From positions 1,871-65,870 of the forward strand of contig JAAWNF010000002.1 of the NCBI GenBank assembly GCA_022798795.1: DNA of 64,000 nt, read 5' to 3'. The notes below the pieces were generated by a model, which was not told where the DNA came from, searched no databases, and saw only the letters and a list, made by a program, of their open reading frames with translations. Made by a program: the position numbers and the translations under genes. Of this stretch, positions 2,927 through 62,881 are shown in pieces. Each line of letters opens with the position of its first letter. The stretch's first letter is position 1. This stretch comes from Bacilli bacterium. GTDB taxonomy: Bacteria; Bacillota_I; Bacilli_A; RF39; UBA660.

Positions 2927-3622
2927 TTATCCCAAAAAATTAAGTAGAAATGGTCCTAAAATAAGAATCATAATTAATGGCACAACAAATAATACTGAAA
3001 TAATACTTATTTTATTTGGAATTTTATTAATTTGTCCTTTAATTTCTAATATTTGTTTGTCTCTTAAAAAAGCAATTTGATTATACATTGTATCTAATAT
3101 ACTATTTCCAAAAATATTCGTTTGGGTAATATTTAAAATAATGTTATTGACTGTTTCTGATGGAATTCTTTTTTTCATATCTTCTAAAGCTTCTAATAAA
3201 GATTTTCCAAAATGAACTTCTAATAAAGACCGTTTAAATTCATCTGATAATTCCGATTTTACATTTGCTACGGTTACTTCTAATGAATTTTCAAGATTTC
3301 TTCCTGATTCTAATGTCAAAGTTAAAATTTCAAAAAAATACAAAGCTTCATGGTCAAGTTTTCGAATGCGCATCTTTAATGGTTTTGTTATAATCAAATA
3401 ATAATATGCATAATACCAAGCTAGTGTAATCGCAGGTGCAAATATATATGCATGCTTTGCTTGATACAATACAACTAGAAATACAATTAAGCAAGAAAGC
3501 AATTGAAGGTTAATGAATGCTGTCGCATCAAATTTAGACTTCCCTCCTAACATATCAATCTGCATTTGAATTCTTTCTAAATCTTTTTCACGATAAATTT
3601 TTCGAATGATATTATTTTTCAA
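2927..3622 (-). CDS. tadC: Type II secretion system F-family membrane protein (TadC-like)
   Basis: 231-aa polytopic membrane protein with GspF/TadC-like helices. It is the last gene of the Tad-like operon. Confidence 0.55.
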   Translation of the reverse strand: MKNNIIRKIYREKDLERIQMQIDMLGGKSKFDATAFINLQLLSCLIVFLVVLYQAKHAYIFAPAITLAWYYAYYYLIITKPLKMRIRKLDHEALYFFEILTLTLESGRNLENSLEVTVANVKSELSDEFKRSLLEVHFGKSLLEALEDMKKRIPSETVNNIILNITQTNIFGNSILDTMYNQIAFLRDKQILEIKGQINKIPNKISIISVLFVVPLIMILILGPFLLNFLG

Positions 3623-3628
3623 ATTTCA

Positions 3629-5143
3629 TCACATCCTAACCGCCATAATTTTTCTAACACACATAATATAAACAACATATAAAATAACAATAAAGAACGA
3701 TAACATAATTCCAAGTGGTGTTGTAAAAAATGGTAAAAAGTATTCTGGATTAATAACACTTACAAAAATTGTAAATAGAACTGGAACACAGAATAATACA
3801 TACATAATCATTTTAGAACTACTTGTTAAGGATTCTAATTCTAGCCATAGTTTTTTCTTGTTAAATAAGGACTCTTCAATCGAAGAAAATACTTTGATAA
3901 TATTCCCACCAGTTTTATTTAAAATACTTAAAGAAGCTGTTAAATAATTCACTTCTTCTAATTTAATTCGGTCTGCAAATCTTCCAAAAACAATATCCAC
4001 CGATAGTCCATAAGAAAGTTCTGCTCTCATTTTTTTAAACTCTTTGGCAATGGCTCCATCTAATTCAGTCATAACTAATTCTATGGCTTGTGTAATACTT
4101 CTTCCAGATTTAAATGCATTGTTCATAATAATAATCGCTTGCAATAAATCGTTTTCAATATGTCTTCTATGCAGCTTATGTTTTGAAATATACAAAATAT
4201 CTGGGACAAAAAATCCAAATATAAATGGAAAAATTATTTCATATGAATTCATCAATTCAATTTGCAAGGTAGATGATATAATTGCAATGATTACAAATAA
4301 AACTGCAATTAATATTTTAGCTGATACAAAATCGATACCAGTTCTATTTTCATCTCCCATAATTCCAACATATTTTTCATAACGATTCGAATATTTTTTT
4401 AAAAAAACAGACTTAGATACATACTTGCTCATTCGTTTTAATAATTTTGCATAAAATTGATAATATCTATCAAACAATGATAAAGAATGGTCATTTAAAG
4501 AATCAATACTATATTTTTTGATTCGTTGCTCTAATTTTACACTTTTTCTATAAGATAACATCGCAAATATAATCCCTACTAGCGCTGTTATAATTCCTAA
4601 TTGAATGAGAATAACTCCAAAAGTATCATCTTTGACAACATTAATCATCATCGTTTTCGTTGTCGTATTTCCAGCACTATCAGTCACTGTATAAACTAAT
4701 TTTTTTAATCCAATTTCATCAAAGTTTAATTCCTCTACATTGGTTGTTACTTGTTCCAATAAATCTCCATCTTGTGTATCATACGCTTTTACATCTGCCA
4801 TTGGATAAAGAATTGATCCAACTCTCATTTTTAAAGAATCGCTTCCAAGTAAGATTACAGGGGCATCTTTATCTATTTTATAAACTCCACTTTGGATTTC
4901 TGTTTTTCGATTGTAATAATCATAGGATTCTATTTTAATTTGGTAGGTTCCAGATTCATCTAATATAATATCTATTGCTTTATCTCTCTCAATACTTTCA
5001 CCACTACTTGGAACACCATTTTTAAATACTGTATATGTATATCTCATAACAAGTTGGTTTGGAGTATATGTAATAGTTATATCTTGATTCGTTGGTTTTT
5101 CTACTGATTCTAAACTAAAACCAGTTTCTTCCAAATTTTCCAT
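3629..5143 (-). CDS. tadB: TadB-like platform protein with an N-terminal roughly 170-aa Ig-like (DUF5011-like) domain
   Basis: The C-terminal half has T2SS-F/TadB-like TM segments. The N-terminus shows ...KAYDTQDGDL...YTVTDSAGN..., typical of bacterial Ig-like/DUF5011 domains. No signal peptide is present. Confidence 0.55.
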   Translation of the reverse strand: MENLEETGFSLESVEKPTNQDITITYTPNQLVMRYTYTVFKNGVPSSGESIERDKAIDIILDESGTYQIKIESYDYYNRKTEIQSGVYKIDKDAPVILLGSDSLKMRVGSILYPMADVKAYDTQDGDLLEQVTTNVEELNFDEIGLKKLVYTVTDSAGNTTTKTMMINVVKDDTFGVILIQLGIITALVGIIFAMLSYRKSVKLEQRIKKYSIDSLNDHSLSLFDRYYQFYAKLLKRMSKYVSKSVFLKKYSNRYEKYVGIMGDENRTGIDFVSAKILIAVLFVIIAIISSTLQIELMNSYEIIFPFIFGFFVPDILYISKHKLHRRHIENDLLQAIIIMNNAFKSGRSITQAIELVMTELDGAIAKEFKKMRAELSYGLSVDIVFGRFADRIKLEEVNYLTASLSILNKTGGNIIKVFSSIEESLFNKKKLWLELESLTSSSKMIMYVLFCVPVLFTIFVSVINPEYFLPFFTTPLGIMLSFFIVILYVVYIMCVRKIMAVRM

Positions 5144-5158
5144 AGAATCACCTACTTT

Positions 5159-6484
5159 CTATTCAAATATATCACTTAGTGTATTAATTCCTCTTGATTT
5201 GATTGTTTTATAAACGTTTGGAATACGGTCATGCAAAATAAATTCTCCCAATACATCCCCGTTTTCTTTCACTCCATCTTGTCTAAATGTAAATATTTCT
5301 TCCATTTTAATCGCGTTGTCTTCAATTCCAGTTATTTCACAAATACTGGTTACTTTTCTTCTTCCATCTGTTAATCTAGACACTTGAACAACAATATTAA
5401 TTGCTCCTTCAATATATTCACGAATCGCCCTAATTGGTATCTCCATTCCTGCCATTAACACCATTGTCTCCAAACGGTTTAAAGCATCTATCGGACTATT
5501 GGCGTGCATGGTTGTTAAAGAACCATTATGCCCTGTATTCATGGCTTGCAACATATCAAAAGCTTCTTTTCCACGAACTTCTCCAACAATAATACGGTCT
5601 GGTCTCATACGTAGAGAATTAATTACCAAATCTCGAATCGTGATTGCTCCTTCTCCTTCATAGTTGGTTAACCTTGTTTCTAAGGAAATAACATGTTCTT
5701 GTTCCAATCTAAGTTCTGCTGCATCTTCAATCGTGATAATTCTCTCATGTGGAGAAATAAACGAAGATAAAACATTTAATAAAGTTGTTTTTCCACTTCC
5801 TGTTCCTCCACAAATAATAATATTCAATTTTGCTTCTACACAAGCCTCTAAGAATCTTGCCATATAAGGGGTTAGTGCTCCTGTCCTTAAAAAGTCCTCA
5901 ATATTAGCAAGCTCCTCTTTAAATTTACGAATTGTTAGAACTGGTCCATTTAAAGAAAGTGGTGGAATAACAGCATTCAATCTGGAACCATCTACAAGCC
6001 TTGCATCAACCATAGGATTGGCTGTATCAATCGTTCTCCCAAGAGGCTGAATCATTCTTTGAATTGTTCTCAAAATATGGTCCTCATTAATAAAAGAAAT
6101 ACTATTGTCTCTTACCACACGACCTTCTAATTCAATATAGATTTCGTCTTTTCCATTCACCATAATTTCTGTAATATCATGGTCTTCTAATAATTCTGTT
6201 AATGGTCCATTCCCACTAATTTCATTATCTATCAAATTATATAAATAGCTTCTTTCCACATTGGATAAGTCATAACCATCAATGGTTCTATCAATTTGTG
6301 TTTTCACAAAGTCTGTCATATCTCTGGCTTTTGTAATATTGTTATCAATTAAGTTTTGAATTATTTTTGTGCGAAGTTCATCTAACAATATTTTATTTGG
6401 AAATGCTTCATAATCTGAAACATAAGCAACTTCTGGAGTTTCTATTTGAACATCAAATTCTTCTACAAATTTTTTCCTTGCCAT
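5159..6484 (-). CDS. cpaF: CpaF/TadA-type secretion ATPase
   Basis: Walker A GGTGSGKTTLLN, Asp box, Walker B and His box (LTTMHANS) of the VirB11/CpaF family are present. Confidence 0.85.
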   Translation of the reverse strand: MARKKFVEEFDVQIETPEVAYVSDYEAFPNKILLDELRTKIIQNLIDNNITKARDMTDFVKTQIDRTIDGYDLSNVERSYLYNLIDNEISGNGPLTELLEDHDITEIMVNGKDEIYIELEGRVVRDNSISFINEDHILRTIQRMIQPLGRTIDTANPMVDARLVDGSRLNAVIPPLSLNGPVLTIRKFKEELANIEDFLRTGALTPYMARFLEACVEAKLNIIICGGTGSGKTTLLNVLSSFISPHERIITIEDAAELRLEQEHVISLETRLTNYEGEGAITIRDLVINSLRMRPDRIIVGEVRGKEAFDMLQAMNTGHNGSLTTMHANSPIDALNRLETMVLMAGMEIPIRAIREYIEGAINIVVQVSRLTDGRRKVTSICEITGIEDNAIKMEEIFTFRQDGVKENGDVLGEFILHDRIPNVYKTIKSRGINTLSDIFE

Positions 6485-6494
6485 AATATTCCTC

Positions 6495-7256
6495 CTATTT
6501 TTTTTCTTTCATCAATGAAGTAGCCATGTTTTTAAAGCCTTCAATTGTTTTTCTATGTTTAGAAGAGACTCCTTTGTTTAAAGTTAAAATGCTCCCCTCT
6601 AAGACATATTTATCTATATTTTTCAAATAAAAACTTTTTGGAATTATATAATCAATTCCCTCTTTCAAAATATTTTTCACATCATATTTTGAAAATTGGT
6701 CTTTGCCAGGATGTGAAGCATCATTTAAAATAATTTTATAATTATCTTGCTCCATGTCCTTATGAATTGCAATTCTAGTAGCCATATTTTTTAAATTCGC
6801 TGGGTCATTATTCACAACATATAATACTTGGTCACTCGCATCAAGAGCTACTAAAGTAATATCATTCAAAAAGTGATTGGTATCAATCAAAATCACATCA
6901 TAACGATATATGACTTTTGATAATACGACTGAAATATATTTGCTTCCTACTTTACTTGCGTTTCTAGGGTCTTTCGGCGATGGAATCACATCGATATCAT
7001 CATTATATTTTACTAAATATCTATCTATATTTTCAAAGCGATTACTGCTCAAATCATCTACTAATCTATAAATATCTTGTTCATTCGAAATATTTAAAGA
7101 AAGGGCAATGGCTCCTCCATATAAATCCAAATCAATAATAAGTACTTTCTTTTTTTGAAGACTAAAAGCACCTGCTAAATTTAAAAGTGTCGTTGTTTTT
7201 CCAGTTCCTCCTTTTACAGATGCAATTGTAAATACTTTTGCCTTTTCTAAAGCCAT
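6495..7256 (-). CDS. cpaE: CpaE-like ParA/MinD-family ATPase of the Tad locus
   Basis: Deviant Walker A SVKGGTGKTT and MinD/ParA-like architecture. It is positioned next to cpaF. Confidence 0.6.
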   Translation of the reverse strand: MALEKAKVFTIASVKGGTGKTTTLLNLAGAFSLQKKKVLIIDLDLYGGAIALSLNISNEQDIYRLVDDLSSNRFENIDRYLVKYNDDIDVIPSPKDPRNASKVGSKYISVVLSKVIYRYDVILIDTNHFLNDITLVALDASDQVLYVVNNDPANLKNMATRIAIHKDMEQDNYKIILNDASHPGKDQFSKYDVKNILKEGIDYIIPKSFYLKNIDKYVLEGSILTLNKGVSSKHRKTIEGFKNMATSLMKEKK

Positions 7257-7257
7257 A

Positions 7258-7635
7258 TTATCCCTCTTTCTTAATCCTTTTTTTGCCGTTTATAAATTCT
7301 CCTTGATAAGATAATTTGATAGTGTAATCTTTGGAAAGAAAAATAGTATCTATTCGCTTCTCCATTCCAACAGAAACTTTCTCATTTTTTATTTCAATTC
7401 TAATTTCATAGATATCTTTAATATTTTCTTTTAATAAATGAGTCATATTCACTTTCAAAGTTGATTCTTCTTCTTTTATGTGGTCTAATGCATAAGAAAT
7501 AGAATCTCTCATTGCATGCTCTATTTTTCGCTTTTCATTATAAGCCATTCCAATATCTACAATAAAACCTACAAGCAATAATAAAAATGGTAATAAGATT
7601 AAAAACAGTACAAGAACTTGCCCCTTTTTATTCAT
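7258..7635 (-). CDS. TadE/TadG-like pseudopilin
   Basis: The N-terminus MNKKGQVLVLFLILLPFLLLLVGFIVD resembles the TadE prepilin-like leader plus hydrophobic helix. Confidence 0.5.
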   Translation of the reverse strand: MNKKGQVLVLFLILLPFLLLLVGFIVDIGMAYNEKRKIEHAMRDSISYALDHIKEEESTLKVNMTHLLKENIKDIYEIRIEIKNEKVSVGMEKRIDTIFLSKDYTIKLSYQGEFINGKKRIKKEG

Positions 7636-7963
7636 TTGAAATCACCCTGCTCGCTTTAATTTGATAGTTTTTTCCCAAGATTCGATTCAGTCCTGGTGTA
7701 TTCACTACCACTTTTCTTGACAAGGTAATGGTTGTAGTGGTACTTTTTTTTTCAATATCAGATTGTAGTTTTTTTTGTTTTACAAAGTAATTTACTTCTG
7801 TTATTTTATTTTGCTTTACTAATTCTACTACATAATCCAAATCATTTTCTAATGTATACTCTTTATAAAGAATATTTCCAAAGTCTATTGCTCCTAATAT
7901 TAATAGCAATAAAACTGGTAATATTATAATAAATTCGACCAATGCTTGCCCTTTATTCTTCAT
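7628..7963 (-). CDS. tadE: TadE-like pseudopilin
   Basis: MKNKGQALVEFIIILPVLLLLILGAIDFG carries the classic TadE G/xxxxEF processing motif and hydrophobic helix. Confidence 0.6.
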   Translation of the reverse strand: MKNKGQALVEFIIILPVLLLLILGAIDFGNILYKEYTLENDLDYVVELVKQNKITEVNYFVKQKKLQSDIEKKSTTTTITLSRKVVVNTPGLNRILGKNYQIKASRVISNE

Positions 7964-8153
7964 CTTACCACACTCTCATATTCTATATAAAATTATACCA
8001 AATAATCACTATTACGACAAGAAAAAGTTTGGGCAAAACCAAACTTTCAATCTAAAATTTTAAAAATTTTATAAAAAATCATAATATTTCATCTCTATCA
8101 AAATCAAATTTATTTTCACAATAAAAGAGCTATTTTCATAACTCTTTTTCTGA

Positions 8154-8714
8154 TTAAGCTTTTACATTTTTATTTTTACGAACTAATATAATCATTAATC
8201 CTAATGATAAAAGGGCTGCACCTGCTACAGGGAATACATAAGCTACATCTCCTGTATTTGGACTACTTGGTGCTCCTTTTTTCTTATATTTAATACATAG
8301 TGAATGTGCTACATCAGCTACATCTGTACTTAACAAACTATTTGCATTTGTAATATTTGAAAAAGTATAAACGCCATCTGCAGATGGTTGTACATATTGA
8401 CGGTCCACTAATACAGTATCAATTTCATAACCTTCATTTACAGTTACTTGAAATGTCTGAGTACATCCAGGATTTACTTCTACATAAAGTTGTTGTCCAC
8501 TTTTTATTGTTATAATATTGCTTGAACTGCTATCAGCTGGAGTTACTGTACAGCTATTTTTTGTTGTTGTAATTGTACCATAATCAATTCCACTTCCATC
8601 TTGTCCATTTATTACGTCAATTTTTAAATTTGCTGCACTTGCACTAGCTACTCCAAGCCATAGAGAACAAAATGCAATTGCAAAAAAGCTCATCATTTTT
8701 ACAGTTTTTTTCAT
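8154..8714 (-). CDS. Secreted surface protein with a C-terminal (S/P)PXTG cell-wall sorting signal (SPNTG); a likely sortase substrate
   Basis: It has an N-terminal Sec signal peptide (MKK...ASASA). At the C-terminus, SPNTG is followed by a hydrophobic segment and a KNKNVKA tail. Confidence 0.65.
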   Translation of the reverse strand: MKKTVKMMSFFAIAFCSLWLGVASASAANLKIDVINGQDGSGIDYGTITTTKNSCTVTPADSSSSNIITIKSGQQLYVEVNPGCTQTFQVTVNEGYEIDTVLVDRQYVQPSADGVYTFSNITNANSLLSTDVADVAHSLCIKYKKKGAPSSPNTGDVAYVFPVAGAALLSLGLMIILVRKNKNVKA

Positions 8715-8767
8715 AAAACACTCTCCCTTATCTTACATTACCATTATCTAACAATTTTTTTATAATG

Positions 8768-11254
8768 TCAATCAGGTAATTCGACATTTTTCTGATTTGA
8801 CACATTTTTTTCTGGAACTATATATGTCATCACTCGTTTTGCTACCACTGTAAAACGTTCATCTTGTTCTTCATCTGTACATGTTGAAAGGGTTAAAAGA
8901 TGGTCTTTTGTTCCTACTTCAAATTCATTGGAGAAAATGGTTTTTTCTTTTATGTTATCCAAATATTCTTGGAATGACTCTTCACTATTAAAATTAATAA
9001 TATGTGCTTCTTTTGAAGAATCAAATTCATAAGCCGCAAAAATTTCATATTGATATGTGGCTTTTGGAGTAATCAGCCATATATATTTATGTTCTTCAAA
9101 ATAAGATTCTTTTCGATATTTTTTCAAAGAACCAAACATCGTATTATTTCTCATGTTATGACCATAAAGAATGGTATTATCTGAACTAAAGTCTTGATTG
9201 GCACGATAATCCACAAAAATAGAACCACTAATATTTTCTTTTTTATTATATAAATGTTTCAAATAATATTCATTATCTTCTGCTCTAGTAATTGGATAAT
9301 TAATCTCTGTGTCTTCCACTCTAATCCAAGCAACAATTTCATCATTAATTTCATATAATGGTTCAAAATCTACTTGTGGGATATCATCATTAATTGGAAA
9401 CTCTGTTCTGTTTGGGTCTGGTTTCAGGATTGGAAGTGGTTTGCTTTGTCCTACTTGATTTTGTATTTTTCCATAACTATCAGAGGCACTCCAATATTGC
9501 CAAATAACTTTTCCTAACAAGAATAGTGAAACTGAAAAAATTAAAATCAAAATACTCAGTACTACCATATAAACTTTTTGATTCGTAAGTTTATTCTTTA
9601 AAACCTTTTTTTGAATTTCCTTTGCATCCTTGATATCAAGTACTTGTGTTAAATTGAGATAGGTACTTTCATATAATTCTGGATTACTAATATAACTAAC
9701 AGAACGATATAACATCTCTAAATGATGATTAGAAAATTTCCACTGGTCAGGATTTTTAGTCAAATATTTACTAATCCTTTTTTGCTCTAATTCATACAAT
9801 CTTGCCATATAATCATTCCATTTAGAAAGAATGGTTTCTAGCTCACTATGTGTAATGATATGATTTCTAACACTTTTATTAATTTCTTTTACAAAATGTC
9901 TTTGAATAATTTTCTCTATTAATTTATCCGTTCTTGGAAGTTTTGGTCTATATTCTAATAATCCAATAAATTCTTCTGACAATTTTGATATTGTTAATGA
10001 AGTATGAAAAATTACTTGTTCATAATAACTTGCTAACATTTCATTGTCTTCATCTTCAAAAATTAATTCCAATTCAGATTCATACGCTTCTAGCAATTCT
10101 ACAATTTTCTTTTTTCTTCCATCTAATTGATACTCCAATTTTAAAAAAGGACGATTTTCTATAATTTCTGGAGATAACAAAATGGTTTGGTCAGTTAAAT
10201 CTTCTAGTGTTAAAATAAGATGATTGGAATCATTAGAAGGTGTTTCTCCTTTTATTGCATCTATAATCTGTTTTTCATAATCTTCTATAATTTCTTTATA
10301 AAGTGCTGGCGCTACTTCTTCAAAAAAGCGAAGACGGTCAATTAAACTTTGGTCTACAATCTCAGTTTCAATACTTAAATAGGAATAATTATCATAGAAG
10401 AAACTTGCACCTAATATTTCTTTTATCATGTACTGCTTTTTACTTTTAATTTCTTCATATTTATTATGAACAAAAGACTTATATTTATATCTTTTTTCAA
10501 ACAAATCAAATAAATAAGCAAAATAAAGCATATTTCCTTCTAATGTTGGCTTTATAACATTTTCATTAATATAAATATCTGGCCCTTGATAAATAAACGG
10601 TTTTTTTTCATCCAATGTTACAACATGTACATTTTCTTTCCAACCTAGTTGTCCAAGTAAATCTAAAATCAAAAAACGGAATAATTCAACATATATTGCA
10701 GATGATAATTCTAATTCTCTATCTTTTTCAAAAATCACATAAAATAGATATCTAAGATAGTGATGTGGCATTTTTCGATTTTTGTAAATCATTAAATAAC
10801 TTAATAAATCTTTTAATTCAAAATCATTTAAAATTCTATTTTTTTTCATTTGCTTATGATAAAATCTTCCAACATCATCTGCTGCTTCTTCAAAATGAAT
10901 ATCCTTTAAAAATTTTTGAAAAAGTTCTAATTCTTTTGGATACTTTTTCGATAATTCTAATAAATTTCTGCATGCAGCATTTTCATAAAATTGAAAAGGA
11001 TTTTCACGCATTCTCTCTAAGTAAAAAGTCGTTAAAATTTTCATCGTAATTGGCAAATAACTAAAATTGTGGGTTTTCTTCATAATAAAAACAGTACTAT
11101 TTAATAAACGCTCAAATTCATTTAAATAATATTGCTTAGAAAGACCATCACCCAAAAAAGAACAATTATCGTCTGCATTTAATAATTGTTTACACAACGC
11201 TTGGTCATCCAATATATGAATTAATTGTTCTATTGTAGTTTTCCCCTTTTTCAT
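8768..11254 (-). CDS. Fusion protein. A roughly 555-aa N-terminal cytoplasmic domain of unknown function is followed by a TM helix and a C-terminal sortase B-like transpeptidase domain.
   Basis: The C-terminal approx. 230 aa contains the sortase catalytic signatures LYGHN and TLSTC. A single TM (VYMVVLSILILIFSVSLFLLG) precedes it. I recognise no motif in the N-terminal half. Confidence 0.7.
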   Translation of the reverse strand: MKKGKTTIEQLIHILDDQALCKQLLNADDNCSFLGDGLSKQYYLNEFERLLNSTVFIMKKTHNFSYLPITMKILTTFYLERMRENPFQFYENAACRNLLELSKKYPKELELFQKFLKDIHFEEAADDVGRFYHKQMKKNRILNDFELKDLLSYLMIYKNRKMPHHYLRYLFYVIFEKDRELELSSAIYVELFRFLILDLLGQLGWKENVHVVTLDEKKPFIYQGPDIYINENVIKPTLEGNMLYFAYLFDLFEKRYKYKSFVHNKYEEIKSKKQYMIKEILGASFFYDNYSYLSIETEIVDQSLIDRLRFFEEVAPALYKEIIEDYEKQIIDAIKGETPSNDSNHLILTLEDLTDQTILLSPEIIENRPFLKLEYQLDGRKKKIVELLEAYESELELIFEDEDNEMLASYYEQVIFHTSLTISKLSEEFIGLLEYRPKLPRTDKLIEKIIQRHFVKEINKSVRNHIITHSELETILSKWNDYMARLYELEQKRISKYLTKNPDQWKFSNHHLEMLYRSVSYISNPELYESTYLNLTQVLDIKDAKEIQKKVLKNKLTNQKVYMVVLSILILIFSVSLFLLGKVIWQYWSASDSYGKIQNQVGQSKPLPILKPDPNRTEFPINDDIPQVDFEPLYEINDEIVAWIRVEDTEINYPITRAEDNEYYLKHLYNKKENISGSIFVDYRANQDFSSDNTILYGHNMRNNTMFGSLKKYRKESYFEEHKYIWLITPKATYQYEIFAAYEFDSSKEAHIINFNSEESFQEYLDNIKEKTIFSNEFEVGTKDHLLTLSTCTDEEQDERFTVVAKRVMTYIVPEKNVSNQKNVELPD

Positions 11255-11259
11255 CCCTT

Positions 11260-11445
11260 TTACTCCGATTTTTCTTCTTTTATAATTTGACTTTGTTTTA
11301 AGTAGTGGTTTGCTAAATGAAGAAACTTACTTGCTTCATTTTTTCGGTTACAAGTTAAGGCTTTTTTATATTTTTCAAAATAATAAACCATTTTTTCACG
11401 GTCTGTTAAATGACGCTCAAAATAATTTGTCTCTTCCACTAGCAT
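11260..11445 (-). CDS. Hypothetical small helical protein (61 aa) immediately upstream of the sortase-fusion gene
   Basis: The ORF has an AGGAG-like SD. It is co-oriented with, and 5 nt upstream of, the 828-aa gene. Confidence 0.3.
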   Translation of the reverse strand: MLVEETNYFERHLTDREKMVYYFEKYKKALTCNRKNEASKFLHLANHYLKQSQIIKEEKSE

Positions 11446-11502: not shown

Positions 11503-12405
11503 TCATTTTTGATTGACATTCATAGATATGCTTTTTTGGTATTTTTCTGCTTTTTTCCTTGGTATTTTAGCGATTTTCATAATCGTTTCTAATGGAAAAC
11601 CTTCCATTAGCATATTTTGTATCACTTCTTCTTCTTTTTTTTGTACTCCAATTTTTTCTCCACGCTTTTCTCCCCTCTTTTCTCCAATTATAATTCCTTG
11701 CTCTCTTCCTTCTCTAAAAAAACCAGCTGTGGCTTGCTCAAACGTCATTTCCATCTTTTCTACCTCCTTTAATCTTTGGTACATTTCAGTATCCATATTA
11801 TAATACTTGACAGATTTTACTAGTTCTTCATATTCTTCTTTGCTTTCTAGCCTTTTTAATACTTCTTTTCCACTTTCACTCCTACCTTTATCATCTAATG
11901 TAAAGAGTCTAGCATAATCATAGTCAAGTCCCACTTTTTCTTTGAGCGCTACTTTAATATTCCATATTTTGATTTTGGAAACATTCCCTAGTTGTTCTTT
12001 TAATTTTTTTTCAAACTCTTCATATTCTTTTAGTACTTGCTTTTCTCCAAATGGAAAATTTACAATCAAATATACTTCTACTGGTAATAGTCGCTTATAA
12101 TCTTCTCCTGGATTTTGATTCGAATACATTTCCGAAGAATAATATTTCACTCTTTCCACTAAATTTTTTAAATCTACATTTTGAATTTCTAATATCATAA
12201 TTCTTTTCGAACTTTTCATAACAATGTCACAAACGCCTGAGCTTAAATTGACATTGCTTTTAGGAAGTTCCTGTTTTTCATAATGAAAATCTTCTAAGTC
12301 TTCATGAAATAAATCTTTCATTAATTTTTTCATATTTTTTTCTTTAAAATAAATATTTTTAAAAATTGGGTCATATCTAAGACCAAATATTCTCTTTGTT
12401 TTCAT
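11503..12405 (-). CDS. Rpn-family recombination-promoting nuclease/putative transposase (PD-(D/E)xK, YhgA-like)
   Basis: The C-terminal GEKRGEKRGEKIG repeat plus the architecture are typical of Rpn/Transposase_31 proteins. It is a standalone insertion between glyQS and the Tad/sortase operon. Confidence 0.55.
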   Translation of the reverse strand: MKTKRIFGLRYDPIFKNIYFKEKNMKKLMKDLFHEDLEDFHYEKQELPKSNVNLSSGVCDIVMKSSKRIMILEIQNVDLKNLVERVKYYSSEMYSNQNPGEDYKRLLPVEVYLIVNFPFGEKQVLKEYEEFEKKLKEQLGNVSKIKIWNIKVALKEKVGLDYDYARLFTLDDKGRSESGKEVLKRLESKEEYEELVKSVKYYNMDTEMYQRLKEVEKMEMTFEQATAGFFREGREQGIIIGEKRGEKRGEKIGVQKKEEEVIQNMLMEGFPLETIMKIAKIPRKKAEKYQKSISMNVNQK

Positions 12406-14119: not shown

Positions 14120-15967
14120 TTATCGATAAAGTTCAATTAAATATTGACTAATATCTTCAAAATTTACAATTTCTAAATTGCCTAACTCTGGGTCTTTATT
14201 TTCATTTGTACTTTTTATGTCAATAACAATTGTGCTTGTCTCTCCTGGAGCTATTTGTTGATTCATTTTGGTATTTCTAACATTTTGATTATTTTTGTCA
14301 AATAACTTTAATATTCCGTTTAGAGTTCTTGCTTCTGTTCCATTATTTTTTACTTCTAATGTAATAGATAAAGTTTCTTTGTCCTCTGATAAAATTGCTT
14401 TCTGATAAGTCACAACCCAATTATTATAATCTACTGTATTATTTCCTGTTGTACTTGTCAGCGTTAATTCATTTGAAGGCTCCTTTTTAATTCCATTACA
14501 GGTATATCCTTCTTTTAAATAATATTCGTTCGCTTCATCAAAAGTGTTTTTCCAAGTTTCGTCTTTTTCTGTTTCTGTTGCTTTTTCATAATCACGGTCT
14601 ATAAACACTTGATAAATATATTGCTTGTCATCATACTTAAATGTATATTTTTGCCCATCTGTATTATTTAATTCTTGACTGAATACTTTAATCATTGCTT
14701 TTCTTTCCATATAAATATCTGCATCTGACATTGTAACCGTTATATGTTCTTTAGAACTTAAAATATTTTTACTAGCATTGTCATATACAAAGGTAATGGT
14801 CTTATTTTCTAAGCTATTATCTTCTGTATTTTCTGTTTCTATGGTACATACCAAATTGGACGTTTTTGGCTCTTCTGGTTTTGTTATTGGAGTATTTGGC
14901 TTATTTGTTTCTTGCATTTGAGGTTCCAATACAAATACATATACAACAGCAATAGAGGCTATTAACAATAAAGTAATAATCATTAGTATCACAATGCTAT
15001 TTTTTCCTTTTTTCTTTTCTTTTTTTCTTTTTTTGCCATCATAGATTTGTTCAAATTTAACAGGCTCTTCTACTGGTACTTCTGGAGTTAAAGTAGGTTC
15101 TATTGGTGGAACTCCTACTACATTCATATGATTGATAGGAGTCACTACTTCTGTAATTGGTATAGGCGTTTCTACCACTGCTGCTTCAGCTTGTTGTTCT
15201 GTCCTTTCTAATGTTGGTAATTCTTTTGATATGTCCTCTTTTTCTAATGGTCTATTTGGTTCTACTCCAGTTGGGATAATATTTATCGTATTTACCTCCT
15301 GTACTGGTGGTATATTTGACATTGATTCATTGAATGACCCTGCTTGTACACTTGGCATTACTGGAACCGTTTGTTCAGAAACTATATTTTGATTTGGAAC
15401 GATAGCTATCTCTGGAGTTGAAACAGGATTTGCTTCTTCCACGATATTTTCAACTTTGTTTGATGGTTCTACATTTGATTCTAATACTGTATCACTATTT
15501 TTCACAAACTGGATTTCTTCTGGTTGAGCCTTTATTTTAGAAGTTTTCTTCATCAAAAAATTTGGCAAAGTAATATTTGCATCGATTTCCTCTTTTTTAG
15601 GAAGCGTAAAGAAGTTTGGATATTGATCCATTTTTTCTTCAAACAAATCAGAGCTTACGATACTCATTCTTTCAATTATACTAAAATCAACAGGTTCTAT
15701 TTCATTATTTACCTCGCCTGAAAACACTTGTTTGAAATAGGAGAATACTTGACGCCTTTCAGAATCCGTTTCACATTTAAATAATAAATATTGTTCTTTT
15801 AATAAAGAAACTCTTCCGATATAGATTTCTAAACGAACATCCTTTTTTTTCTTAGGAACTTCAGTGTAGGCTAAATATTGGTTCTGATTATATATAATTT
15901 TAAACCCTATAGCAATTTCAACATAATGGTCTTCTTTTGTTGTATCTTTCACTATTTTCTTTTCCAT
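14120..15967 (-). CDS. Hypothetical single-pass membrane protein. It has a cytoplasmic N-terminal domain, a Pro/Val/Glu-rich linker and an extracellular C-terminal domain.
   Basis: 615 aa. There is a polybasic KKRKKEKKKGK stretch before the TM helix IVILMIITLLLIASIAVVYVFVL. I recognise no catalytic motif. Confidence 0.5.
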   Translation of the reverse strand: MEKKIVKDTTKEDHYVEIAIGFKIIYNQNQYLAYTEVPKKKKDVRLEIYIGRVSLLKEQYLLFKCETDSERRQVFSYFKQVFSGEVNNEIEPVDFSIIERMSIVSSDLFEEKMDQYPNFFTLPKKEEIDANITLPNFLMKKTSKIKAQPEEIQFVKNSDTVLESNVEPSNKVENIVEEANPVSTPEIAIVPNQNIVSEQTVPVMPSVQAGSFNESMSNIPPVQEVNTINIIPTGVEPNRPLEKEDISKELPTLERTEQQAEAAVVETPIPITEVVTPINHMNVVGVPPIEPTLTPEVPVEEPVKFEQIYDGKKRKKEKKKGKNSIVILMIITLLLIASIAVVYVFVLEPQMQETNKPNTPITKPEEPKTSNLVCTIETENTEDNSLENKTITFVYDNASKNILSSKEHITVTMSDADIYMERKAMIKVFSQELNNTDGQKYTFKYDDKQYIYQVFIDRDYEKATETEKDETWKNTFDEANEYYLKEGYTCNGIKKEPSNELTLTSTTGNNTVDYNNWVVTYQKAILSEDKETLSITLEVKNNGTEARTLNGILKLFDKNNQNVRNTKMNQQIAPGETSTIVIDIKSTNENKDPELGNLEIVNFEDISQYLIELYR

Positions 15968-20320: not shown

Positions 20321-21490
20321 CTACTTACTTTCTATTTCCTCTGTTATATTTTGATAACTTGTAATATCCTCTAATACTGTAAAAAATATTTCTAATACTA
20401 TTCTACTATCTTTTACTTCAACTTTCAAATTTTTTTGACTAATTATTTCTTCTTTGTCAGAAAGTTGACTTTCCATTTTCTTCCGCGCTAAGGCTTCTGC
20501 TTTCACTATGGCTTCATCTTCTGTATTAATTTCATCTACTTCAACTGTCTCTATCTGATTTTCTTTTGCTAGCACAATTGGCAAAAAAGAATGCTTTAAA
20601 AGTATCGTTTTCTCAATCTTTTTCGTTTTGTAATAATGAAATGGAAACAATTGAAAATTTTGATTTAAAAACTGAAATGTATAAGCGATTTGTTTTTTAC
20701 CAGTTTCTCTTATTTCTTGGTAAGCAAATGGATAAGAAACAGTTACTTTATACCAAACTTCTCCATAAACTTTTCCTTCTGCTGGAACAGTTTCTTTTTG
20801 CTCCTCATTTAATTTTAAACTTCCACTAATAATAATATCTCCTGTACTAACATAATCATTCGTATTTCTAACAATTTCACCTTTGGTTGCTTCTACTCTT
20901 CTTATAATCGCACTTTTTTTTGCTATTACATTTCTATTTTCCTGTTCTTCTTTTGTTGGTTTTAATTTTCTCATTTCTACACGTACAATATATTTTGTTC
21001 CTTTTGCCTCTATTTCTAACCACTCTATTTTATCTCTATTTTCATTCACAATTTGTTCTTTGATTTTTTCAAGTTCCTGAAATCTTTTTTTAATACTTCC
21101 TTTCTTGATTCCATGTTCTTCTAATTCTTTATATAATAAAGTCCGAAGCTCCTTATTTGTATGAATAATTTCTATATCATACATAATATTCGATAATCCA
21201 TATAAAAAAAGTAATGCCAAAGCTAGTCCAATTAAAAAAAAGCGATTGAGTTTCATTTTTTTCTTAATTTCTATCAGACCAGAGGTTCCTACTTGGTCAA
21301 TTTCATAAATCGTTTTTAGTTCCATCACACTATCATAAGAGTCTGCATAAATTGTAATAATCACAGTTTTATAATTGGTATATTCTAATTTTAAAATTTC
21401 AATCTGATGACTATAAAGTCTATGAATAAAACGTTCAATATTTCTACCACTAATTTTTAGCGTTATTTTACTTTTTAATTTTTCTAACAT
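20321..21490 (-). CDS. yqfD: Sporulation protein YqfD
   Basis: 389 aa with the YqfD-like architecture (N-terminal domain, TM, C-terminal domain). It lies directly downstream of a yqfC-like gene, as in Bacillus. Confidence 0.6.
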   Translation of the reverse strand: MLEKLKSKITLKISGRNIERFIHRLYSHQIEILKLEYTNYKTVIITIYADSYDSVMELKTIYEIDQVGTSGLIEIKKKMKLNRFFLIGLALALLFLYGLSNIMYDIEIIHTNKELRTLLYKELEEHGIKKGSIKKRFQELEKIKEQIVNENRDKIEWLEIEAKGTKYIVRVEMRKLKPTKEEQENRNVIAKKSAIIRRVEATKGEIVRNTNDYVSTGDIIISGSLKLNEEQKETVPAEGKVYGEVWYKVTVSYPFAYQEIRETGKKQIAYTFQFLNQNFQLFPFHYYKTKKIEKTILLKHSFLPIVLAKENQIETVEVDEINTEDEAIVKAEALARKKMESQLSDKEEIISQKNLKVEVKDSRIVLEIFFTVLEDITSYQNITEEIESK

Positions 21491-22105: not shown

Positions 22106-22149
22106 AATTCGTTTATGATAAAATAAAAGTGGTTTTAAAGAGGTGTAAC

Positions 22150-23484
22150 ATGAAAAAAATTCTATTAATCCTCCTTGGAAAATGCATCATTCTATTTGGA
22201 AAAATTGTGCATAGAGGAAGTTCTTTACCAGGTGAAATCATTTTAAAATTAGATTCTAAGTTTATGAAAAAAATAAAACTTCCTAGAACAGTAATTGCTG
22301 TTACAGGAAGCTCTGGAAAAGGTTCCGTTTCTAGTATGATAAGAGATATTTATAAAGGGTGTGGTTATAACGTTGCCCACAATGTGAAAGGTTCTAATTT
22401 AAGTGCTGGGATTATGACACTACTTTTAGAAAATACAACTTTGTTAGGAACCATCAAAAAAGATGTTCTCATTTTTGAAATTGATGAACGCTATACCAAG
22501 TATGTTTTTCCTGAACTAAATCCTAATTATGTGGTCATTACAAATTTAACAAGAGACCAGCCTCCAAGACAAGGACATTTCGATTTGGTATTTGAAGAAA
22601 TCAAAAAAGCAATTACAAATGATATGCATTTGATTTTAAATGGTGATGACCCATATTTACAAAAATTTACATTTGACCATAAGGGACCAATTACTTATTA
22701 TGGAATTTCAAAAAACAAGTTTTCTTATTCAAAAAACAAATTTCAAAATTTAAATCTTAATTATTGTCCAAAGTGTAATAAGAAGTTAGAATATGAATAT
22801 TATCAATTTGAAAATTTGGGGAATTATACTTGTTCAAAGTGCGATTTCAAAAGACCAAAAATTGATTATGAAGTAACAAAACTAGATTTTGAAAAAAAGC
22901 AAATAATTATCAATAATCTTTATTCTATTCATATGCCTTCTGGCATTTTGTATGCAGCTTATAATATATTAGCCGCTTTCGCTACAACTACTATTCTTGG
23001 ATTAAATATAGAAACGATTTCAAGGATAATGGACGAATTAAATCAAAATACAAAACTGTATGATGAATATTCTTTTCATGACAGAATTATTTATGTGTTA
23101 AATAACAAAAATGAAAATAGTACAACTTTTAACAGTTCTCTTTTATTTCTAGACCGTTTTAAGGAGAAAAAAACAATTGTTATTGGTTGGAAAGAAATCA
23201 GTAGAAGATATCATTTTGATGATTTATCTTGGCTATATGATATTGATTTTGAATTACTAAAAAAACATGATATTGATAAAATTATTTGCGTCGGTATCCA
23301 TCGCTATGATATTGCAACAAGATTAAAATATGCAGGTATTTATGAAAAGGATATTATGGTGTTTGACAACTTAGAAAATGCCACAACAGAAATTAAGAAA
23401 CGAACTTCAGGAAATATTTATGCAATTTTAAATTTCGATTATGTGGAACCTTTTAATCATTATATGAAGGAGGACTTATCATGA
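22150..23484 (+). CDS. murT: Lipid II isoglutaminyl synthase subunit MurT (Mur ligase family)
   Basis: GSSGKGS P-loop, a Cys4 insertion (CPKCNKK...CSKCDF) and the DUF1727 tail. AAAGAGGTG SD. The table ORF start at 22129 is probably spurious. Confidence 0.8.
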   Translation: MKKILLILLGKCIILFGKIVHRGSSLPGEIILKLDSKFMKKIKLPRTVIAVTGSSGKGSVSSMIRDIYKGCGYNVAHNVKGSNLSAGIMTLLLENTTLLGTIKKDVLIFEIDERYTKYVFPELNPNYVVITNLTRDQPPRQGHFDLVFEEIKKAITNDMHLILNGDDPYLQKFTFDHKGPITYYGISKNKFSYSKNKFQNLNLNYCPKCNKKLEYEYYQFENLGNYTCSKCDFKRPKIDYEVTKLDFEKKQIIINNLYSIHMPSGILYAAYNILAAFATTTILGLNIETISRIMDELNQNTKLYDEYSFHDRIIYVLNNKNENSTTFNSSLLFLDRFKEKKTIVIGWKEISRRYHFDDLSWLYDIDFELLKKHDIDKIICVGIHRYDIATRLKYAGIYEKDIMVFDNLENATTEIKKRTSGNIYAILNFDYVEPFNHYMKEDLS

Positions 23485-24212
23485 ATATTACAATTGCACA
23501 TCTTTATTATGATTTGCTCAATTTATATGGAGAAAGTGGTAATGTGAAAGCTTTAAAATATGGTTTAGAAAGTCAAGGTATTGATGTTACAATCAAGTTT
23601 GCAACAATTGGAGATGCATTAGACTTTGATTCTTATGATTTTATCTATATGGGCGCTGGAACAGAAGCCAATCAAAAATTAGCACTTCGCCATCTTATAA
23701 AATATAAGGATGATGTAAAAAAAGCAATTGAAATTGGTAAATTCTTTTTAATTACTGGAAATTCTTTAGAACTATTTGGAAAATGTATTATAGATAAACA
23801 TGAAAAAAGAATCAAAACATTACATGCTTTTAATTTCTATACAAAAGAGGAAAATTTTAGAATGGTTGATGAAGCACTGGTAAAAGCTGATTTTATGAAG
23901 CCTTATATATTGGGTTTTCAAAATCAAGGAAGTGTTATTAAAAGCAATGAAAATATAATGTTTGAAGTCATAAAAGGAATTGGAAGTTTTCCAAATAGCA
24001 AAATAGAAGGTGTTCATAAAAATCATTTCTATGGAACTTATTTAATTGGTCCTATTCTAGTTCGAAATCCAGAGTTCTTAAAATATATGGTAAAAGAATT
24101 AATTTTAAGTAAAAATCCAGAGTTTAAATTTAAACGATTTAATCTAACTTTAGAAAATAAAGCTTATCATGAATTTATGAAAAATTATTATAAAGAATAT
24201 ATAGAAGTTTGA
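23481..24212 (+). CDS. gatD: Glutamine amidotransferase GatD (CobQ-like), partner of MurT
   Basis: Overlaps murT by 4 nt (ATGA). Type-1 GATase-like. Confidence 0.75.
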   Translation: MNITIAHLYYDLLNLYGESGNVKALKYGLESQGIDVTIKFATIGDALDFDSYDFIYMGAGTEANQKLALRHLIKYKDDVKKAIEIGKFFLITGNSLELFGKCIIDKHEKRIKTLHAFNFYTKEENFRMVDEALVKADFMKPYILGFQNQGSVIKSNENIMFEVIKGIGSFPNSKIEGVHKNHFYGTYLIGPILVRNPEFLKYMVKELILSKNPEFKFKRFNLTLENKAYHEFMKNYYKEYIEV

Positions 24213-33687: not shown

Positions 33688-35337
33688 TTAAAATAATCCG
33701 ATAATTTCATTATCTATAACATCAATTTGCTCATAGTTTGGCCTCTTTGGAAGTCCTGGCATTGTCATAATGTCTCCAAGTAAAATTGTTATAAATTTGG
33801 CTCCTGCATAAAGTCTAATATCTTTTACATGGAGCTCATAATTGGTTGGATTTCCTAACTTATTTGGGTCATCTGATAAAGAATATTGGGTTTTGGCAAC
33901 ACAGATTGAATATTGCTCATATTTTGTATTTTTTAATCTTTCTATTTTTTCTTTGGCTTCTTCTGAATAGCAAACCCCATTCGCGTGATAGATATTTTTA
34001 GCAAGTTTTTCTAACTTTTCTTCTATGGAGTCTTCAAGCTCATATTGATACTTTAAATCATGCTTTTCTTCACTCAACTCTAATACTTTCTTTGCCAAAG
34101 ATATTGCCCCTTCACCACCATTTACATAAGCAGTACTTGCCTCTAATGAAACCTGAAGTTCAGCACAAATGTCTTTTAACGTTTTAATTTCTTCTTCTGT
34201 ATCCGTTTGATATTGATTTAAACAAACCACGATTGGAATTTCAAATTGTTTTAAATTGCAAATATGCGCTTTTAAATTTGCTGCTCCTATTTTAATTGCT
34301 TCTATATTTTCTTTTAAAATGTCTTCTTTTTTTATTCCTGCATTATATTTTAATGATTTTAAAGTAGCTACTAAAACAATAGCTGAGGGAGTTAAATTCC
34401 CTACTCTACATTTTATATCTAAAAATTTTTCAGCTCCTAAATCAGAACCAAAACCAGCTTCTGTAATAACATAATCAGATAATTTTAGAGCAAGCTCTGT
34501 TGCAATCAAACTATTACACCCATGAGCAATATTAGCAAATGGCCCTCCATGAACAAGCGCTGGATTACCCTCTAATGTTTGTACTAAATTAGGTTTGATA
34601 GCATCTTTTAAAACAGCCATCATACTTCCTGTAATATGAAGTTGTCCAGCTAAAACTGGAGTCCCTTCATAAGTATAGCCAATGACAATTTCGTCAATTC
34701 TATTTTTTAAATCTTCCAAATCTTTTGCTAGACAAAATAATGTCATAATTTCACTTGCAGCAGTGATATTAAAATGTTCTTCTCGTTTCGTTTCTCTATC
34801 ACTAGAAAATCCTATTTTTGTGCTTCTTAAAGCTCTATCATTCATATCCAAGCATCTTGAGAACGATATGGTTTCAGGATTTATATTTAGCTCATTTCCA
34901 AAATATAAATGATTATCTATTGCTGCACATAACAAATTATTTGCTGTTGTAATTGCATGAAAATCTCCTGTAAAGTGCAAATTAATTTCTTCCATCGGAA
35001 CAATTTGAGAATAGCCTCCCCCAGTTGCTCCTCCTTTCATTCCAAATACAGGACCTAATGATGGTTCTCTTAAAGCAAGAATTGCATTTTTCCCTAATTT
35101 ACATAAAGCATCATCTAATCCAATACTAACTGTCGTTTTCCCTTCTCCATAAGGTGTTGGAGATATGGCTGTTACCAAAATCAATTTTCCTTTTTTCTCG
35201 CCTTTTATTTTGTTTCCGTCTATTTTAGCCTTATCATTTCCATAACGTTCTAAATCATCATTTAAAACTCCAATTTTTTTCGCGATTTCTTCTATTTTTA
35301 AAGGAGAAATACGATGCGCTATTTCAATATCTGTCAT
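33688..35337 (-). CDS. fhs: Formate--tetrahydrofolate ligase
   Basis: PTPYGEGKTT motif. About 549 aa from the ATG at 35337, preceded by an AGGTGA SD. Confidence 0.9.
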   Translation of the reverse strand: MTDIEIAHRISPLKIEEIAKKIGVLNDDLERYGNDKAKIDGNKIKGEKKGKLILVTAISPTPYGEGKTTVSIGLDDALCKLGKNAILALREPSLGPVFGMKGGATGGGYSQIVPMEEINLHFTGDFHAITTANNLLCAAIDNHLYFGNELNINPETISFSRCLDMNDRALRSTKIGFSSDRETKREEHFNITAASEIMTLFCLAKDLEDLKNRIDEIVIGYTYEGTPVLAGQLHITGSMMAVLKDAIKPNLVQTLEGNPALVHGGPFANIAHGCNSLIATELALKLSDYVITEAGFGSDLGAEKFLDIKCRVGNLTPSAIVLVATLKSLKYNAGIKKEDILKENIEAIKIGAANLKAHICNLKQFEIPIVVCLNQYQTDTEEEIKTLKDICAELQVSLEASTAYVNGGEGAISLAKKVLELSEEKHDLKYQYELEDSIEEKLEKLAKNIYHANGVCYSEEAKEKIERLKNTKYEQYSICVAKTQYSLSDDPNKLGNPTNYELHVKDIRLYAGAKFITILLGDIMTMPGLPKRPNYEQIDVIDNEIIGLF

Positions 35338-62548: not shown

Positions 62549-62881
62549 CTATTTTTCTGTACAATGACATTCTGGATTGGTGCAAGTACAATTTGGATTA
62601 TATCCACTAGCACATTCCTCTGTACAAGTACATTTCCATCTTTTTAAAGTAGGGAACAGTTTTTCACAGTATTTTTTCATTTCTTCATTGGTCATTCCTG
62701 CTTGCTCTCCATATTTTGAACACATAAGAATATATTCTTCCATTGAAACTTTATCTATAAATTCCCCTTTTTCAAAGCAAAATTTACAGTAATCTATATT
62801 GATACTTCCATCTTTATTTCTACCCAATTGTTCCTTTGATTCTATAGGCATTCCGCAACTTTGACATATTTTATACTCCAT
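62549..62881 (-). CDS. Putative zinc-ribbon domain protein with a Cys-rich C-terminal tail
   Basis: N-terminus MEYKICQSCGMPI...DYCKFCF...LKRW. C-terminal CTCTEECASGYNPNCTCTNPECHCTEK. Confidence 0.65.
   Translation of the reverse strand: MEYKICQSCGMPIESKEQLGRNKDGSINIDYCKFCFEKGEFIDKVSMEEYILMCSKYGEQAGMTNEEMKKYCEKLFPTLKRWKCTCTEECASGYNPNCTCTNPECHCTEK

Follow-up and report, generated by a model that had tools for sequence, protein, structure and literature searches.

A class B sortase joined to a degenerate HExxH-family domain, predicted to be cytoplasmic, in a conserved gene cassette of uncultured gut Bacilli

Introduction

Sortases are regarded as small enzymes that work autonomously outside the cell, their specificity residing in an extracellular motif, and an ordinary class B sortase (SrtB) measures some 220–260 amino acids (aa), with few residues ahead of its membrane anchor. 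Here, we describe a sortase gene of another architecture in a 64,000-nucleotide stretch of DNA (“the window”) from a Bacilli bacterium (assembly GCA_022798795.1, contig JAAWNF010000002.1, positions 1,871 to 65,870 of the forward strand): an open reading frame (ORF) of 828 codons at 8768–11254, in which a class B sortase forms the C-terminal third and is preceded by 556 residues predicted to lie in the cytoplasm. Our best overall reading, to which we give a probability of roughly 0.4, is that of a dedicated sortase in which a zincin-like domain, inactivated and on the cytoplasmic side, would bind a small partner protein.

With the class B sortases of S. aureus, B. anthracis and C. difficile (MEROPS C60B) the window protein shares a high score against the curated class model, the His-Cys-Arg triad and a membrane helix directly N-terminal of the catalytic domain. 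In contrast to them, it adds 556 conserved residues, predicted cytoplasmic, and is always accompanied by a small gene upstream; by catalytic domain, anchor and substrate logic it is a sortase B, but not by architecture. To our knowledge, control of a sortase from inside the cell via a fused domain has not been described for any known sortase. Literature searches on sortases with cytoplasmic domains and on links of sortases to zincins or to Tad pili turned up no account of this architecture or of any sortase with a large cytoplasmic part, although coverage was incomplete and an earlier description is possible. A functional parallel is SrtB of C. difficile, which cleaves (S/P)PXTG motifs between T and G (PMC4155245); the putative substrate in the window has a sorting motif of the same type and is encoded by the adjacent gene.

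The remaining comparisons concern the N-terminal region. A motif of the form HExxH...Y...E is the signature of gluzincin-type metallopeptidases, among them M48 (HtpX/Ste24), M56 (BlaR1), M34 (lethal factor/PPEP-1) and the minigluzincins. BlaR1 combines an active M56 protease with four transmembrane (TM) helices and a sensor resembling penicillin-binding proteins. A zincin has been linked to SrtB-anchored proteins before, in the case of C. difficile ZmpI/PPEP-1 and SrtB substrates (PMC4591827). PPEP-1, however, is a secreted, active and separate protein that releases anchored substrates, whereas the zincin-like domain described here is predicted to be cytoplasmic and inactive and is fused to the sortase. 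Loss of a catalytic motif under continued purifying selection is shared with pseudo-proteases such as the FtsHi proteins, which are retained as binding or regulatory modules (PMC8197885), but the domain in the window is of another fold family and stands in another cellular context.

Results and discussion

Anatomy of the fusion protein

An earlier note, made from the DNA letters alone, had reported a sortase B-like domain fused to a large N-terminal region of one 828-aa protein. The gene was recovered as described, on the minus strand and with an ATG start (plus-strand translation of 8768–11254 is full of stop codons), and was resolved into the following parts.

8768–11254, minus strand: sortase-fusion gene, a single uninterrupted ORF with an ATG start, 828 aa.
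9587–11254, minus strand: degenerate zincin-like N-domain, aa 1–556, predicted cytoplasmic, of a rare uncharacterised family (profile search, hhalign, structure model, substitution rates).
10493–10507, minus strand: degenerate active-site motif D250-L251-F252-E253-K254, which aligns with the HExxH of stand-alone relatives (alignment, hhalign).
9506–9580, minus strand: single TM helix, aa ~559–583, VYMVVLSILILIFSVSLFLLGKVIW (Kyte-Doolittle scan, one peak).
8831–9370, minus strand: sortase B catalytic domain, aa ~629–808, with H699, C792 and R800 (Pfam, TIGR03064, SrtB structures).

The C-terminal third, which the note had assigned from the motifs LYGHN (aa 696–700) and TLSTC (aa 788–792), is a class B sortase. 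The curated model TIGR03064 (“class B sortase”) matched aa 564–803 over model positions 7–235 of 235 with 213.3 bits (cut-off, 153.75), Pfam Sortase matched aa 644–808, and phmmer against solved SrtB structures (B. anthracis, S. aureus, C. difficile, Listeria and others) gave E values of ~1e-35 to 1e-37 over aa 560/629–808. Catalytic residues H699, C792 and R800 were invariant across 13 aligned homologues.

A Kyte-Doolittle scan of the whole protein found one hydrophobic segment only and no N-terminal signal-like segment, and the 15 residues flanking the TM helix carry a net charge of +4 on the N-terminal side and 0 on the C-terminal side. On these grounds the topology is most simply predicted to be N-in/C-out with 556 residues in the cytoplasm, in agreement with the orientation proposed in the note; it is also the only topology that allows sortase function. 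Since position 7 of TIGR03064 falls at aa 564, inside the TM region, the helix is, by alignment, the equivalent of the N-terminal anchor of an ordinary SrtB. A full-length AlphaFold2 (AF2) model was poor (predicted local distance difference test [pLDDT], 61; sortase part, <50) because the alignment held 13 rows only, and it was not used. We regard it as highly probable that the protein is a bitopic membrane protein with an intact class B sortase as its extracellular C-terminal third, encoded in a conserved three-gene cassette.

The fusion is conserved and under selection

An error of sequencing or assembly could have joined two genes, as the earlier note had allowed, or a short sortase could be made from an internal start at Met562. 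Met562 does lie just ahead of the TM helix, at the place expected for the start of an ordinary SrtB, and databases hold N-terminal pieces of the protein by themselves: with aa 1–561 as query, a word-indexed search through 5.8 billion proteins returned 13 clusters, of which two (P0009 and P0027) were short N-terminal fragments. The other 11, however, were full length (793–832 aa) with a Pfam sortase and N-domain identities of 49–88%, and two more distant fusions, P0014 (824 aa) and P0015 (826 aa), came from an exhaustive HMMER profile search through 1.84 billion cluster representatives. The same architecture was found uninterrupted in 15 full-length clusters, with identity down to ~26%, from independent NCBI metagenome-assembled genomes (MAGs), ENA and Logan assemblies. 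All sequences came from uncultured gut MAGs labelled “Tenericutes” or “Bacilli”.

Against four close relatives, the ratio of nonsynonymous to synonymous substitution rates (dN/dS) was 0.085–0.095 for the N-domain and 0.05–0.08 for the sortase part; both halves are therefore translated and constrained by purifying selection. The true start is preceded by GGAG 9 nucleotides 5′ of the ATG, overlapping the end of the small ORF upstream. Internal initiation at Met562 was rejected, since inspection of the DNA found no Shine-Dalgarno sequence 5′ of it and the residue is not conserved (Val in P0011, Ile in P0015). Taken with the recurrence in independent clusters, these results effectively refute an artefactual origin of the fusion.

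The N-domain descends from a family of HExxH proteins

Composition of aa 1–556 was as the earlier note had described it, rich in K, E, L, Y and F (L 13.8%, E 10.4%, K 10.1%, I 8.5%, Y 6.8%, F 5.6%). The note had also seen no recognisable motif in this region. That observation holds as far as Pfam and NCBIfam are concerned, neither of which matched aa 1–556, but the region proved to be a degenerate member of an HExxH family. At E ≤ 1e-3 the profile search with the N-domain recovered 14 proteins only, which comprised, apart from fusions and a number of fragments, soluble proteins without a sortase (P0018–P0026, 295–887 aa, E 1.5e-10 to 2.7e-4), and hhalign of the fused against the stand-alone alignment gave a probability of 99.45% (E 4.5e-22, 422 columns). 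By these alignments the N-domain is clearly homologous to a rare family of soluble, stand-alone HExxH proteins. Two further word-indexed searches with mixed alignments yielded no more than the close family or a few additional stand-alone proteins, so that either the family is genuinely rare or its words have diverged too far for a word-indexed search. The N-domain is not a common domain routinely fused to sortases, the case that the note had named as a refutation.

Searches of Pfam, NCBIfam and PHROG with the stand-alone relatives and the N-domain gave nothing usable (the best match was SprT-like, E 0.096, for P0026), sequence searches of the PDB with the single protein and two family profiles gave sortase matches and otherwise noise (E > 0.01), and neither hidden Markov model (HMM) nor fold searches matched the N-domain or its stand-alone relatives to a peptidase family. 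The stand-alone family nevertheless has seven invariant columns, which include H-E-x-x-H, a Tyr ~35 residues downstream and a Glu ~41 residues downstream, the last in an E-x-D-A-like context. In these three elements it resembles the gluzincins, a likeness of signature and not a database match. On this basis the stand-alone relatives are somewhat more probably than otherwise gluzincin-type metallopeptidases, with the product of an accompanying small ORF (see below) as their substrate, inhibitor or adaptor.

Motif and architecture separate the two groups completely. Each of the 12 full-length stand-alone relatives carries a single HExxH and lacks both a membrane segment (maximum 19-residue hydropathy <1.6) and a sortase, whereas HExxH occurs in 0/15 full-length fusions, each of which has one strong hydrophobic segment and TLSTC. 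The window protein differs from gluzincins in reading D-L-x-x-K at this place and is therefore not an active zincin. In the alignment, the counterpart of the invariant E309 of P0018 is E296; the 13 closer fusions retain this Glu, and Q and D replace it in P0014 and P0015, respectively. Judged from the alignments, the N-domain is a degenerate member of the HExxH family in which the catalytic motif was lost with the fusion.

Could the domain still be an enzyme with a relocated active site, for example through the HNKYEEIK segment beside the old motif helix? This segment, beginning at H263, is invariant in the 13 closer homologues and reads HNKYEEVK in P0014, but P0015 has DTIDYEEY at this place and no His, and the replacement of the Glu equivalent to the putative third ligand in P0014 and P0015 counts against this reading as well. 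We consider residual catalysis of this kind the least probable of the functional alternatives weighed here.

An AF2 model of aa 1–556, built on a mixed alignment of fused and stand-alone sequences, was of good quality (pLDDT, 87.1; predicted template modelling score, 0.71) and bore out the helical character proposed in the note: the region is all-helical but for three short strands (208–212, 220–223 and 226–230) forming one sheet. These lie between a helix at 185–203 and the long helix at 238–263 that bears the degenerate motif, and the downstream Glu stands at the start of a helix at 295–314. A helix and three strands ahead of the motif helix may be, in the model, a further likeness to gluzincins, and the order of elements is consistent with a gluzincin core embedded in helical bundles.

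Paralogous HExxH proteins were also observed side by side in another metagenomic organism (L015 3323–6719, identical to L017 5001–8397), where a small ORF of 60 aa lies between P0021 (496 aa) and P0024 (572 aa); the group directly follows a gene for a 222-aa protein with a Spo0A_C domain. With this neighbour in L015, a link between the module of HExxH protein and small ORF and the regulation of sporulation is a possibility.

A small upstream gene accompanies fused and stand-alone members

The cassette is compact (three genes, ~3.3 kb), and its first gene encodes a small protein.

11260–11445, minus strand: small helical ORF, 61 aa (or 59 aa from a GTG two codons in), with AGGAG upstream (ORF list).

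It ends 5 nucleotides before the ATG of the sortase fusion. Its product contains LTDREKMVYYFEKYKKALTCNRKNEASKFLHLANHYLKQ, conforms to the motif LTDxEKMVYYFEKYKxAL-C-xxxEAxxFLxLAxxY, looks like a helical hairpin by prediction and had no match in Pfam, NCBIfam or PHROG. Using tblastn, the small ORF was found directly upstream of the fusion gene in 10/10 related loci (L001–L008, L013 and L014), and a recognisable homologue was found directly upstream of stand-alone P0018 (L009–L012), where it overlaps the start of P0018. P0024 (L015) and P0019 (L020) follow small ORFs of 60 and 64 aa, respectively, whose N-terminal motif is visibly similar. Across related loci the small upstream ORF measures ~50–64 aa, and it was present at every stand-alone locus examined. 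As it precedes both fusions and stand-alone relatives, the ancestral unit was a two-gene module of small protein and HExxH protein, and we propose the small protein as the cytoplasmic partner of the N-domain. The earlier note had suggested that the transpeptidase is coupled to a cytoplasmic partner or signal; with this conserved ORF the idea of a partner is plausible, although the partner that the note had in mind was another (see below).

The same evidence bears on signalling from outside to inside after the manner of BlaR1, in which the occupancy or acyl-enzyme state of the sortase would be passed to the cytoplasmic domain, which would then sequester or release the small protein as a regulator. 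The window protein shares with BlaR1/MecR1 the layout from N to C terminus (a zincin-type domain inside, a TM segment and an acyl-enzyme-forming domain outside), which is an analogy only, and the conserved gene for a small partner would suit such a scheme. It differs from them in having one TM helix, a dead domain and a cysteine transpeptidase, with no sequence relationship detected and no HMM match of its N-domain to Peptidase_M56 or any other family. Loss of the catalytic motif makes proteolytic signalling impossible, a single TM helix offers little conformational coupling, and no DNA-binding or sigma-related domain is recognisable in the small protein. Signalling of this type is therefore improbable.

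The adjacent gene encodes a probable dedicated substrate

Directly downstream of the fusion gene lies the third gene of the cassette.

8154–8714, minus strand: 186-aa secreted protein with a signal peptide, a ~120-aa domain with conserved Cys residues and a sorting signal (TIGR01167).
8157–8264, minus strand: sorting signal, comprising SPNTG-D, a hydrophobic stretch and RKNKNVKA-COOH (alignment of 11 loci).

TIGR01167 (LPXTG_anchor) matched the protein with 22.8 bits against a cut-off of 15.9. The gene occupies the same position in the window and in 10/10 related loci, and over these 11 loci the sorting motif is [SD]P[NDEA]TG[DE] with a tail that always ends in [VL][KE]A. No other sorting-signal protein and no other sortase were found in the 64-kb window, of which the 186-aa protein is the sole carrier of a sorting signal. 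It is thus the probable dedicated substrate of the fusion sortase, going by motif and gene position. Cleavage at SPNT|G and linkage of the neighbouring protein to peptidoglycan, as carried out by C. difficile SrtB, is likely to be the reaction of the extracellular half. A sigma-70-like promoter-like site (TTGACA-17-GATAAT, 11/12) was located at 8743–8771 on the minus strand, within the last codons of the sortase gene and ahead of the substrate gene. This embedded site suggests that the substrate gene can be transcribed independently of, and more strongly than, the sortase gene.

Substrate and sortase may also meet on the inner side of the membrane. According to one reading, the cytoplasmic domain is a receptor for the positively charged tail of the substrate (…RKNKNVKA-COOH) and holds the precursor during cleavage at SPNT|G, the small ORF product being a chaperone or assembly factor only. 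The end of the tail is conserved in 11/11 loci despite a strongly diverged mature domain, the cleft of a dead peptidase would be a natural site for binding a peptide, and the cassette follows a strict layout of one sortase and one substrate. Conservation of the tail may, however, be phylogenetic inertia, and stand-alone relatives occur with the small ORF but without sortase or substrate, so that the ancestral ligand is more likely to be the small protein. Tail recognition as the main task of the domain is therefore rather unlikely, though it is the alternative to which we give most weight.

We therefore favour the reading stated at the outset, with the small protein as ligand. In this scheme the fused peptidase would have turned into a pseudo-peptidase, a binding module without catalysis whose ligands are still the small protein and possibly the substrate’s conserved cytoplasmic tail (-VKA) as well, and the outcome would be that stability, position or activity of a dedicated sortase is tied to a cytoplasmic factor. 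Retention of the inactivated domain as a binding module for the small protein, with or without the tail, is the tentative part of this scheme and taken by itself would have to be called doubtful. A more elaborate form, in which the dead peptidase domain and the 60-aa adaptor read or gate the cytoplasmic end of one precursor, or report the state of the sortase inward, while the extracellular half carries out transpeptidation, is speculative and less probable again than tail recognition.

The Tad genes are neighbours but the less likely partner

The coupling suggested in the earlier note was to the ATPase machinery of the Tad pilus, whose genes follow the cassette on the same strand.

2927–7963, minus strand: Tad-type pilus assembly genes, comprising two TadE-like genes, a TadZ-like ATPase, CpaF (T2SSE ATPase), TadB and TadC (T2SSF, two genes) (Pfam; adjacent context).

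If the cytoplasmic domain brought the sortase onto the CpaF/TadZ ATPases, the SPNTG protein would be anchored at or onto the pilus, and the adjacency of cassette and Tad locus does recur in L002–L004, L007 and L008. Nevertheless, Tad genes are absent beside the cassette or separated from it by unrelated genes in 7/10 related loci. In L002–L004, 2–2.6 kb of unrelated genes, including one for a membrane protein with a helix-turn-helix (HTH) domain, stand between the substrate gene and the Tad genes; in L005 and L006 the substrate gene is followed by a GmrSD-like and an HD-domain gene, respectively; and the most divergent fusions have no Tad neighbours (L013 lies between PolC upstream and GlmM downstream, L014 among HTH genes). 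An extended −10 promoter-like site is present in the intergenic region before the first TadE gene. CpaF and TadC are 90–98% identical between loci where the fusion protein is 52% and the substrate 57% identical, so the rates of evolution of the two gene sets differ widely. No Tad genes adjoin the stand-alone relatives of the N-domain, and the fusion protein itself matched no Tad family in Pfam. Inserted or absent Tad genes, a promoter-like site of their own, unequal divergence and stand-alone relatives without Tad genes together make the Tad machinery the less likely partner, and docking of the sortase onto its ATPases, as the note had proposed, is very improbable.

The interval from the substrate gene to the first TadE gene (window 8154–7963) was itself observed to be a variable spot with different inserted genes in relatives: an HTH-domain membrane protein and two genes of no assigned function in L002 (13148–15652), a GmrSD_N restriction-like gene in L005 (9816–11657) and an HD-domain gene in L006 (13453–14076). 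Within the Tad locus, the TadB-like protein (3629–5143, minus strand) has its T2SSF domain at aa 340–461 and a ~170-aa N-terminal region with a match to a surface Ig-like domain (PF16403); this region is unusual for a Tad platform protein and is conserved in L007 and L008. No gene for an Flp-type pilin was found between the substrate gene and the TadE genes among ORFs down to 20 aa, and a scan of all window ORFs of ≥40 aa for the Flp motif gave two weak and distant plus-strand matches only (33842–33970 and 62577–62792). A prepilin peptidase was not found within the Tad locus (2927–8150), the locus alone having been scanned.

Other genes of the window

Directly upstream of the cassette lies a gene of the Rpn/PD-(D/E)XK “putative transposase” family (11503–12405, minus strand). 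Its counterpart in close relatives is 42–47% identical, compared to 95–96% for the flanking GlyS, and it is therefore fast-evolving or has been replaced. Further upstream, a gene at 14120–15967 (minus strand) encodes a protein of 615 aa that matched nothing in Pfam and has a TM helix at its centre and a linker rich in proline and glutamate. The window also encodes MurC (1584–2903), the sporulation protein YqfD (20321–21490) and a MurT/GatD-like pair (22129–24212), so the sortase can be expected to have a cell wall to work on. The organism appears to be a low-GC (28.7%) member of the Bacilli that has a wall and may form spores.

Conclusions

The importance of this architecture is limited by its narrow distribution, with few clusters, all from uncultured gut Bacilli. 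Its relatives nonetheless reveal an unannotated family of HExxH proteins in low-GC gut bacteria, each paired with a protein of ~60 aa, and the fusion provides a clean natural case in which conversion of a peptidase to a pseudopeptidase coincides with a domain fusion. The cytoplasmic tail of the substrate’s sorting signal gains a possible specific reader, and if the more elaborate, two-sided form of the scheme were true, the action of a sortase would be controlled from the cytoplasm through a fused domain. More generally, the conservation of a sortase with a small dedicated partner and a large cytoplasmic domain under selection suggests that sorting is controlled or targeted from the cytoplasm in at least one lineage.

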